Assembly: GCF_003018255.1 (NCBI RefSeq)
Contig: NZ_CP027440.1
From: Escherichia coli
GTDB lineage: Bacteria > Pseudomonadota > Gammaproteobacteria > Enterobacterales > Enterobacteriaceae
DNA length: 64,000 bases
Strand: one strand, 5' to 3'
Made by a program: the position numbers and the translations under genes. This document shows positions 52,804-56,229 of the stretch, piece by piece (the first letter of the stretch is position 1; the number at the start of each line of letters is the position of its first letter). The notes under the pieces are model-generated. The model had not been told where the DNA came from. It worked only from the letters and a program-made list of their open reading frames with translations, and did not search any database.

Positions 52804-54230
52804 TAATGCCGATCAGTTAAGGATCAGTTGACCGATCCAGTGGCTGTGTAAGAATCCGGAAACGCTCACTTGTTTCCGGATTTTTTTATGCACATTGGAC
52901 AGGCTCTTGATCTGGTATCCCGTTACGATTCTCTGCGTAACCCACTGACTTCTCTGGGGGATTACCTCGACCCCGAACTCATCTCTCGTTGCCTTGCCGA
53001 ATCAGGTACTGTAACGCTACGCAAGCGCCGTCTTCCCCTCGAAATGATGGTCTGGTGTATTGTTGGCATGGCGCTTGAGCGTAAAGAACCTCTTCACCAG
53101 ATTGTGAATCGCCTGGACATCATGCTGCCGGGCAATCGCCCCTTCGTTGCCCCCCAGTGCCGTTATTCAGGCCCGCCAGCGCCTGGGAAGTGAGGCTGTC
53201 CGCCGCGTGTTCACGAAAACAGCGCAGCTCTGGCATAACGCCACGCCGCATCCGCACTGGTGCGGCCTGACCCTGCTGGCCATCGATGGTGTGTTCTGGC
53301 GCACACCGGATACACCAGAGAACGATGCAGCCTTCCCCCGCCAGACACATGCCGGGAACCCGGCGCTCTACCCGCAGGTCAAAATGGTCTGCCAGATGGA
53401 ACTGACCAGCCATCTGCTGACGGCTGCAGCCTTCGGCACGATGAAGAACAGCGAAAATGAGCTTGCTGAGCAACTTATAGAACAAACCGGCGATAACACT
53501 CTGACGTTAATGGATAAAGGTTATTACTCACTGGGACTGTTAAATGCCTGGAGCCTGGCGGGAGAACACCGCCACTGGATGATACCTCTCAGAAAGGGAG
53601 CGCAATATGAAGAGATCAGAAAACTGGGTAAAGGCGATCATCTGGTGAAGCTGAAAACCAGCCCGCAGGCACGAAAAAAGTGGCCGGGACTGGGAAATGA
53701 AGTGACAGCCCGCCTGCTGACCGTGACGCGCAAAGGAAAAGTCTGCCATCTGCTGACGTCGATGACGGACGCCATGCGCTTCCCCGGAGGAGAAATGGCG
53801 GATCTGTACAGTCATCGCTGGGAAATCGAACTGGGATACAGGGAGATAAAACAGACGATGCAACTGAGCAGGCTGACGCTGAGAAGTAAAAAGCCGGAGC
53901 TTGTGGAGCAAGAGCTGTGGGGTGTCTTACTGGCTTATAATCTGGTGAGATATCAGATGATTAAAATGGCGGAACATCTGAAAGGTTACTGGCCGAATCA
54001 ACTGAGTTTCTCAGAATCATGCGGAATGGTGATGAGAATGCTGATGACATTGCAGGGCGCTTCACCGGGACGTATACCGGAGCTGATGCGCGATCTTGCA
54101 AGTATGGGACAACTTGTGAAATTACCGACAAGAAGGGAAAGGGCCTTCCCGAGAGTGGTAAAGGAGAGGCCCTGGAAATACCCCACAGCCCCGAAAAAGA
54201 GCCAGTCAGTTGCTTAACTGATCGGCATTA
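52804..54230 (+). mobile_element. IS4-family insertion sequence (IS4-like, 1427 bp) with 18-bp perfect terminal inverted repeats
   Basis: IRL TAATGCCGATCAGTTAAG at 52804-52821 equals the reverse complement of IRR at 54213-54230; single internal DDE transposase gene of about 442 codons; flanking 14-bp direct repeat; size fits IS4 (about 1426 bp). Confidence 0.85.
52888..54217 (+). pseudogene. insG: IS4 transposase, reading frame split by +1 frameshift in a C6 run (53150-53155)
   Basis: ORF 52888..53193 (MHIGQALDLVSRYDSL...) and ORF 53147..54217 overlap in different frames; joined they give about 442 aa with the IS4-family YREIK motif ([13 protein letters not shown]). Confidence 0.75.
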
Positions 54231-54244: not shown

Positions 54245-54423
54245 CCGTTTTTTTATTCTGTTAGTTGTGAAACTGAAGCGATTTAGTCACTATCGATCTC
54301 ATCAAATATGGCTCGCTTTGAGATATTCCTCAAGTAAAAAAACACCTCTTCCTGCGATTTCTCACAAAAAAGATTCGTTGACAAAAAGTGACAAAATTAT
54401 GAGATTTCCATCACACATTTTGA

Positions 54424-54819
<396 letters not shown>

Positions 54820-54842
54820 TCCTTTATATTGAGTGTATCGCC

Positions 54843-54866
54843 AACGCGCCTTCGGGCGCGTTTTTT
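54843..54866 (+). terminator. Rho-independent terminator of raiA
   Basis: CGCGCC-TTCG-GGCGCG hairpin followed by TTTTTT. Confidence 0.6.
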
Positions 54867-54922
54867 GTTGACAGCGTGAAAACAGTACGGGTACTGTACT
54901 AAAGTCACTTAAGGAAACAAAC

Positions 54923-54970
54923 ATGAAACACACACCGTTTTTCTTCGCATTCTTTTTTACCTTCCCCTGA
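54923..54970 (+). CDS. pheL: pheA leader peptide (15 aa, 7 Phe codons)
   Basis: Translates to [15 protein letters not shown]; immediately followed by the attenuator. Confidence 0.8.
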   Translation: [15 protein letters not shown]

Positions 54971-55016
54971 ATGGGAGGCGTTTCGTCGTGTGAAACAGAA
55001 TGCGAAGACGAACAAT

Positions 55017-55046
55017 AAGGCCTCCCAAATCGGGGGGCCTTTTTTA
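55017..55046 (+). terminator. pheA attenuator terminator
   Basis: AAGGCCTCCC-AAAT-CGGGGGGCCTT hairpin followed by a T-run, 20 bp upstream of the pheA ATG. Confidence 0.7.
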
Positions 55047-55068
55047 TTGATAACAAAAAGGCAACACT

Positions 55069-56229
55069 ATGACATCGGAAAACCCGTTACTGGCGCTGCG
55101 AGAGAAAATCAGCGCGCTGGATGAAAAATTATTAGCATTACTGGCAGAGCGACGCGAACTGGCCGTCGAGGTGGGAAAAGCCAAACTGCTCTCGCATCGC
55201 CCGGTACGTGATATTGATCGTGAACGCGATTTGCTGGAAAGATTAATTACGCTCGGTAAAGCGCACCATCTGGACGCCCATTACATTACTCGCCTGTTCC
55301 AGCTCATCATTGAAGATTCCGTATTAACTCAGCAGGCTTTGCTCCAGCAACATCTCAATAAAATTAATCCGCACTCAGCACGCATCGCTTTTCTCGGCCC
55401 CAAAGGTTCTTATTCCCATCTTGCGGCGCGCCAGTATGCTGCCCGTCACTTTGAGCAATTCATTGAAAGTGGCTGCGCCAAATTTGCCGATATTTTTAAT
55501 CAGGTGGAAACCGGCCAGGCCGACTATGCCGTCGTACCGATTGAAAATACCAGCTCCGGTGCCATAAATGACGTTTACGATCTGCTGCAACATACCAGTT
55601 TGTCGATTGTTGGCGAGATGACGTTAACTATCGACCATTGTTTGTTGGTCTCCGGCACTACTGATTTATCCACCATCAATACGGTCTACAGCCATCCGCA
55701 GCCATTCCAGCAATGCAGCAAATTCCTTAATCGTTATCCGCAATGGAAGATTGAATATACCGAAAGTACGTCTGCGGCAATGGAAAAGGTTGCACAGGCA
55801 AAATCACCGCATGTTGCTGCGTTGGGAAGCGAAGCTGGCGGCACTTTGTACGGTTTGCAGGTACTGGAGCGTATTGAAGCGAATCAGCGACAAAACTTCA
55901 CCCGATTTGTGGTGTTGGCACGTAAAGCCATTAACGTGTCTGACCAGGTTCCAGCGAAAACGACGTTGTTAATGGCGACCGGGCAACAAGCTGGTGCGCT
56001 GGTTGAAGCGTTGCTGGTACTGCGCAACCACAATCTGATTATGACCCGTCTGGAGTCACGCCCGATTCACGGTAATCCATGGGAAGAGATGTTTTATCTG
56101 GATATTCAGGCCAATCTTGAATCAGCGGAAATGCAAAAAGCATTGAAAGAGTTAGGGGACATCACCCGTTCGATGAAGGTATTGGGCTGTTACCCAAGTG
56201 AGAACGTAGTGCCTGTTGATCCAACCTGA
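55069..56229 (+). CDS. pheA: Bifunctional chorismate mutase / prephenate dehydratase
   Basis: 386-aa ORF with CM, PDT and ACT domains. Confidence 0.95.

Follow-up and report, generated by a model that had tools for sequence, protein, structure and literature searches.

The pheL leader of an Escherichia coli genome carries the majority Thr4 allele within a standard pheL-pheA attenuator

Results

Organization of the raiA-pheL-pheA region

The stretch of DNA analysed here, hereafter the window, comprises 64,000 nucleotides of the Escherichia coli contig NZ_CP027440.1 (assembly GCF_003018255.1), and coordinates are positions within it unless stated otherwise. The region of interest begins with raiA, an open reading frame (ORF) at 54478-54819 that is annotated under this name in identical loci. 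Downstream of it, a terminator scan located the raiA intrinsic terminator on the plus strand at 54843-54867, directly 5' of the pheA promoter. Its hairpin (54843-54862) has eight pairs, six of them G-C, and a 4-nt loop, and is followed by TTTTGTTGAC. The pheA promoter has its -35 hexamer, TTGACA, at 54868-54873 on the same strand. A consensus promoter scan of positions 54400-55200 gave no full sigma-70 match including a -10 element, and therefore only the -35 hexamer was assigned, with support from the promoter fragment of PMC3082878, which begins at primer TTGACAGCGTGAAAACAGTAC and in which lacZ was driven from the phenylalanine promoter.

The leader peptide gene pheL occupies positions 54923-54970 on the plus strand and is preceded, 7 nt 5' of its ATG, by AAGGA (54911-54915, plus strand), which from its sequence and position is a probable Shine-Dalgarno element. 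The gene consists of 15 codons and a TGA stop, and it reads ATG AAA CAC ACA CCG TTT TTC TTC GCA TTC TTT TTT ACC TTC CCC TGA. Seven of the 15 codons specify Phe in the arrangement FFF-A-FFF-T-F, as expected of a leader ORF. This control region (codons 6-8, 10-12 and 14) spans 54938-54964 on the plus strand, with TTT TTC TTC at 54938-54946, TTC TTT TTT at 54950-54958 and the last TTC at 54962-54964. The gene ends in the conserved TTC CCC TGA (54962-54970), which places it in the CCC_UGA group of pheL sequences; the UUC_CCC_UGA ending was described in PMC3082878. In genomes that are identical over the leader region, pheL is annotated as WP_001386991.1. The regulated gene pheA, encoding the 386-aa chorismate mutase/prephenate dehydratase, is found at 55069-56229 on the plus strand (WP_000200129.1 in identical loci). 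Its ORF starts 23 nt past the T run of the attenuator, so that the leader lies directly upstream of pheA. A minus-strand ORF at 54397-55056 (219 aa, TTG start), antisense to raiA and pheL, was taken as a mechanical ORF because no gene is listed there in the annotated genomes inspected.

Between bamD and raiA the window has an IS4 copy whose transposase is frameshifted into two ORFs, at 52870-53193 and at 53147-54217. This insertion is shared by 326 of the 5,426 complete E. coli genomes searched, and in two identical loci that were inspected the transposase is annotated as a "frameshifted" pseudogene. K-12 has no IS element at the bamD-raiA site. Given its recurrence and the frameshifted annotation in identical loci, the insertion marks a lineage and did not arise in assembly.

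Attenuator identity and predicted RNA structures

The leader region matched the Rfam family RF01859 (Phe_leader) at 54922-55047 over the full length of the model (positions 1-125 of 125), with 132.2 bits against a gathering score of 55 and an E-value of 4.7e-25. Together with the translation, this bears out the initial annotation of the locus as pheL with seven Phe codons. The minimum free energy (MFE) fold of the leader has -51.7 kcal/mol and a z-score of -5.16 against dinucleotide shuffles. In this fold, and in the Rfam consensus structure, the segment 1:2 protector or pause hairpin extends over 54937-55013 on the plus strand, with the Phe-codon region paired to 54990-55013. The pheL hairpin and a NusA-enhanced pause have been described (PMC9291695).

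Constrained folds in which a ribosome footprint was masked gave a predicted 2:3 antiterminator at 54963-55036 on the plus strand. With the A site on codons 6-8, its predicted energy was -36.8 kcal/mol, and for A-site positions over Phe codons 6-10 the same helix was predicted throughout, at -36.8 to -33.3 kcal/mol. This helix would use up the 5' arm of the terminator, and the two structures are thus predicted to be mutually exclusive; once the ribosome has reached codon 12, re-formation of the terminator is predicted. The attenuator itself (55017-55045, plus strand), recognised by folding, terminator scan and Rfam alike, consists of a hairpin at 55017-55041 with ten pairs, seven of them G-C, and a 5-nt loop, followed by a T run at 55040-55045. 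It is identical to that of K-12, in line with the earlier statement that the attenuator is intact. The region is a standard E. coli pheL-pheA transcription attenuator of the classical ribosome-mediated type.

A single difference from K-12

The raiA-pheA spacer, the 251 bp separating the stop of raiA from the start of pheA, was aligned with that of K-12 MG1655, and the two differ only at position 54933 of the plus strand. The window has C there, giving ACA (Thr) at codon 4 (54932-54934), and K-12 has T, giving ATA (Ile), in agreement with the initial annotation. The K-12 gene reads ATGAAACACATACCG... and its product is annotated as WP_010723158.1, "phe operon leader peptide". The remaining 250 of 251 bases are identical, and the two leaders are alike in length, Phe codons, TTC_CCC_TGA ending, hairpins, terminator and promoter region. 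In the longer raiA-tyrA block, 45 of 2,916 positions distinguish the window from K-12. No leader difference was found relative to loci carrying the Thr4 form WP_001386991.1 ("pheA operon leader peptide PheL"), for example SK1144, in which the peptide and the 251-bp spacer DNA are identical to those of the window. These loci also share the gene order raiA-pheL-pheA-tyrA-aroF with the window, whose lineage has in addition the frameshifted IS4 between bamD and raiA. The leader likewise agrees with the CCC_UGA pheL group of Gurvich et al. (2011; PMC3082878) in its UUC_CCC_UGA end, the shared core and the Pro at -10, and residues 3-5 are free to vary inside that group.

Allele counts in complete E. 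coli genomes

The two alleles were counted with 57-mer probes centred on 54933, with 28 bases on each side, and a match of at least 99% identity was taken as an allele match. The Thr4 form of the window was present in 3,988 of the 5,418 matched complete E. coli genomes (74%), and the Ile4 form of K-12 in 1,383 (26%). Complete genomes are a non-random sample, enriched in laboratory derivatives of K-12 and in outbreak lineages, and 74/26 is accordingly a count and not a population frequency. By these counts, Thr4 is the majority allele and Ile4 the minority allele. Genomes in which the Thr form bears the annotation WP_001386991.1 include SK1144, S88, O157:H7, BL21, JNE23-011 and 2014C-3338, and the 57-mer of E2348/69 is the same as that of the window. 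The other 47 genomes have further differences, such as MKHTPFSFAFFFIFP in strain MSI001.

The difference from K-12 had been put forward as diagnostic, a description that does not hold: reference genomes other than K-12 have ACA at codon 4, and two other Escherichia species have Thr there as well (see below). Since Thr is the majority state and is annotated as WP_001386991.1, the C at 54933 is not distinctive. The Thr4 allele is already known, annotated and ordinary.

Several other leader variants were seen in these comparisons. The pheL of MSI001, the variant just mentioned, has six Phe codons only (WP_216684335.1) and lies beside a phage integrase gene. This gene ends about 165 bp 5' of pheL in MSI001 (locus L129, 1462-2666) and likewise in 1604D011 (locus L132, 420-1622). 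The integrase junction is located in the raiA terminator, and the match to the raiA-pheL spacer is split or duplicated; in a search with this spacer, matching places exceeded matching records by 155. The raiA terminator/pheA promoter region looks like a prophage attachment site. In O157:H7 PV15-279, the leader has a C to A change in hairpin segment 2 (GAAGACGAAC to GAAGAAGAAC). The BL21 leader has a T to A change just past the stop codon (TGAATGGG to TGAAAGGG), and the 3' arm of its terminator has one G fewer. These O157 and BL21 changes, which align to window positions 54971-55037, fall in paired regions, unlike the Thr4/Ile4 site.

Ancestral state and haplotype background

Species-representative genomes were scanned with a degenerate pattern in which the Phe control region was held fixed, and at least 120 pheL loci of Enterobacterales were extracted and translated; E. 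fergusonii, Salmonella and the E. coli representative are absent from the loci listed. Escherichia albertii has MKHTP... with ACT (Thr) at codon 4, and Escherichia sp. E1V33 has MKQTP... with ACG (Thr), both with C at the second base of the codon. In the set of 122 sequences compared, which includes the loci listed, only K-12 had ATA at codon 4.

The 2,916-bp raiA-tyrA block was compared within each allele class. Four sampled Ile genomes (K-12, EcN_Sk, 164 and B20159) showed 0 differences across the block, and five Thr genomes (the window, SK1144, S88, O157 and BL21) differed from each other at 16-55 positions. When 5,425 genomes were ranked by similarity to the K-12 block and 60 evenly spaced rows were read, the 14 full-length rows at 99.9-100% carried the K-12 product name for PheL, and the other name appeared in the full-length rows with no more than 99.7% identity. 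The product name is a proxy for the allele only, with an exception in H72, which has the K-12 57-mer under the other product name. From these four sequenced loci and the product-name proxy, the Ile allele is best read as belonging to one nearly invariant K-12-like raiA-tyrA haplotype. In view of the states in E. albertii and Escherichia sp. E1V33 and of this haplotype pattern, C (Thr) is apparently ancestral and T (Ile, ATA) derived.

The raiA-tyrA block of EcN_Sk (locus L123, 2159-5074) is 100% identical to that of K-12 (locus L001, 2659-5574) over 2,916 bp, and EcN_Sk has the K-12 protein accessions for YfiH, RluD, PheA, TyrA and AroF. The S88 block differs from the K-12 block at 47 positions. 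From its name, EcN_Sk is presumably a derivative of Nissle 1917 (phylogroup B2). If it does derive from that strain, the identity points to a recombinational import of a K-12-like segment.

Predicted consequences of the codon-4 change

Pairing in the 1:2 hairpin begins 4 nt 3' of position 54933, which falls among columns at the 5' end of the Rfam consensus that are unpaired. Folded free, both alleles gave the same MFE structure at the same -51.7 kcal/mol; with the ribosome masked at six footprint positions, structures and energies were again the same for both. An RNA-structure consequence of the substitution was therefore rejected, as the folds are identical both free and at the six masked positions. 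The residue at position 4 varied widely across the at least 120 species (L 35, T 24, V 20, D 10, I 9, F 8, Q 7 and others), with at least 13 different residues among the Enterobacterales loci listed. Judged by this variation, the peptide is unconstrained at position 4. Gurvich et al. (PMC3082878) noted that pheL positions vary except for the start codon, the regulatory Phe codons and the terminal UUC_CCC_UGA. The mutations made in that study were limited to the -10 Pro, the -2 Thr and the penultimate Phe, and the paper contains no statement on E. coli pheL alleles and no test of codon 4.

Because the predicted structures and energies are equal and position 4 is hypervariable, the Thr4/Ile4 substitution is likely to be neutral. 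This agrees with the initial annotation, which had considered the change probably neutral and outside the Phe control codons; codon 4 (54932-54934) indeed precedes the control region (54938-54964).

Discussion

The evidence gathered here makes it very probable that the locus is a standard pheL-pheA attenuator in which C at 54933 is a natural polymorphism, namely the majority and apparently ancestral state, with the ATA of K-12 derived and carried on one haplotype, and that no effect of the substitution is to be expected. The mechanism of attenuation and its dependence on charged tRNA-Phe are taken from the pheA literature, in which Phe-dependent read-through in vivo is known for the K-12 sequence (PMC3082878, PMC9291695). 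In such a scheme, RNA polymerase would start at the pheA promoter, transcribe the 15-codon leader and pause at the 1:2 hairpin. When charged tRNA-Phe is scarce, the ribosome translating pheL would stall on the seven Phe codons, and the 2:3 antiterminator would form and allow read-through into pheA. A ribosome reaching the stop codon would instead leave the 3:4 terminator (55017-55045) to form, and transcription would end. Thr4 in place of Ile4 would not be expected to affect this switch.

AUA is a rare codon in E. coli and is read by a minor tRNA-Ile, and given this rarity the alleles could differ slightly in the early elongation speed of the leader. It may be proposed that the Thr4/Ile4 difference is functional, in that either the rare AUA (read by the minor tRNA-Ile2) or the changed nascent residue beside Pro5 shifts basal pheA expression. 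Such an effect could act by three routes: the arrival of the ribosome at the Phe run, the release of the paused polymerase, or the frequency of frameshifting at CCC_UGA. The last route finds some support in the adjoining Pro5, the replacement of which changes +1 frameshifting at CCC_UGA 2-fold, halving its level of about 15%, although the same study found frameshifting to be irrelevant to pheA expression (PMC3082878). The Ile allele is also not rare, being found on one haplotype in about one quarter of the complete genomes. Against this stand the at least 13 residues at position 4 among the at least 120 species listed and the predicted RNA structures, which do not change between the alleles. 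Moreover, linkage across the whole 2.9-kb block, together with the excess of K-12 derivatives among the sampled genomes, accounts for how often the Ile haplotype occurs. We therefore regard a functional difference between the alleles as improbable.

A more specific proposal is that Thr4 (ACA) and Ile4 (AUA) constitute a natural tuning knob of attenuation, in which the derived rare AUA of K-12, read by the minor, lysidine-dependent tRNA-Ile2, delays the leader ribosome and thereby shifts basal pheA read-through. If this were true, measurements of pheA attenuation based on K-12 would not represent most E. coli. We consider this slightly less probable still. The remaining alternative, in which the window would in truth be K-12-like here and the C at 54933 would stem from faulty sequencing or assembly, is effectively refuted, since the identical 57-mer, with this base between the same flanks, occurs in 3,988 independent complete genomes, the surrounding 6 kb including the frameshifted IS4 are 100% identical to several independent assemblies, both of the identical assemblies that were inspected have the Thr allele, and the 45 differences from K-12 over 2,916 positions indicate a background that is not K-12.

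A natural, probably neutral polymorphism thus remains the preferred reading of position 54933, and the site informs on the K-12 haplotype, not on the genome from which the window was taken. T at this position could mark the K-12-like raiA-tyrA haplotype, which is also found in some non-K-12 strains such as EcN_Sk. It is K-12 that is atypical at codon 4, as Thr is encoded in about three quarters of the complete E. coli genomes and in both further Escherichia species that were recovered, and a difference from K-12 at such a site should accordingly be checked against the alleles of the whole species before it is taken as a peculiarity of the query genome.
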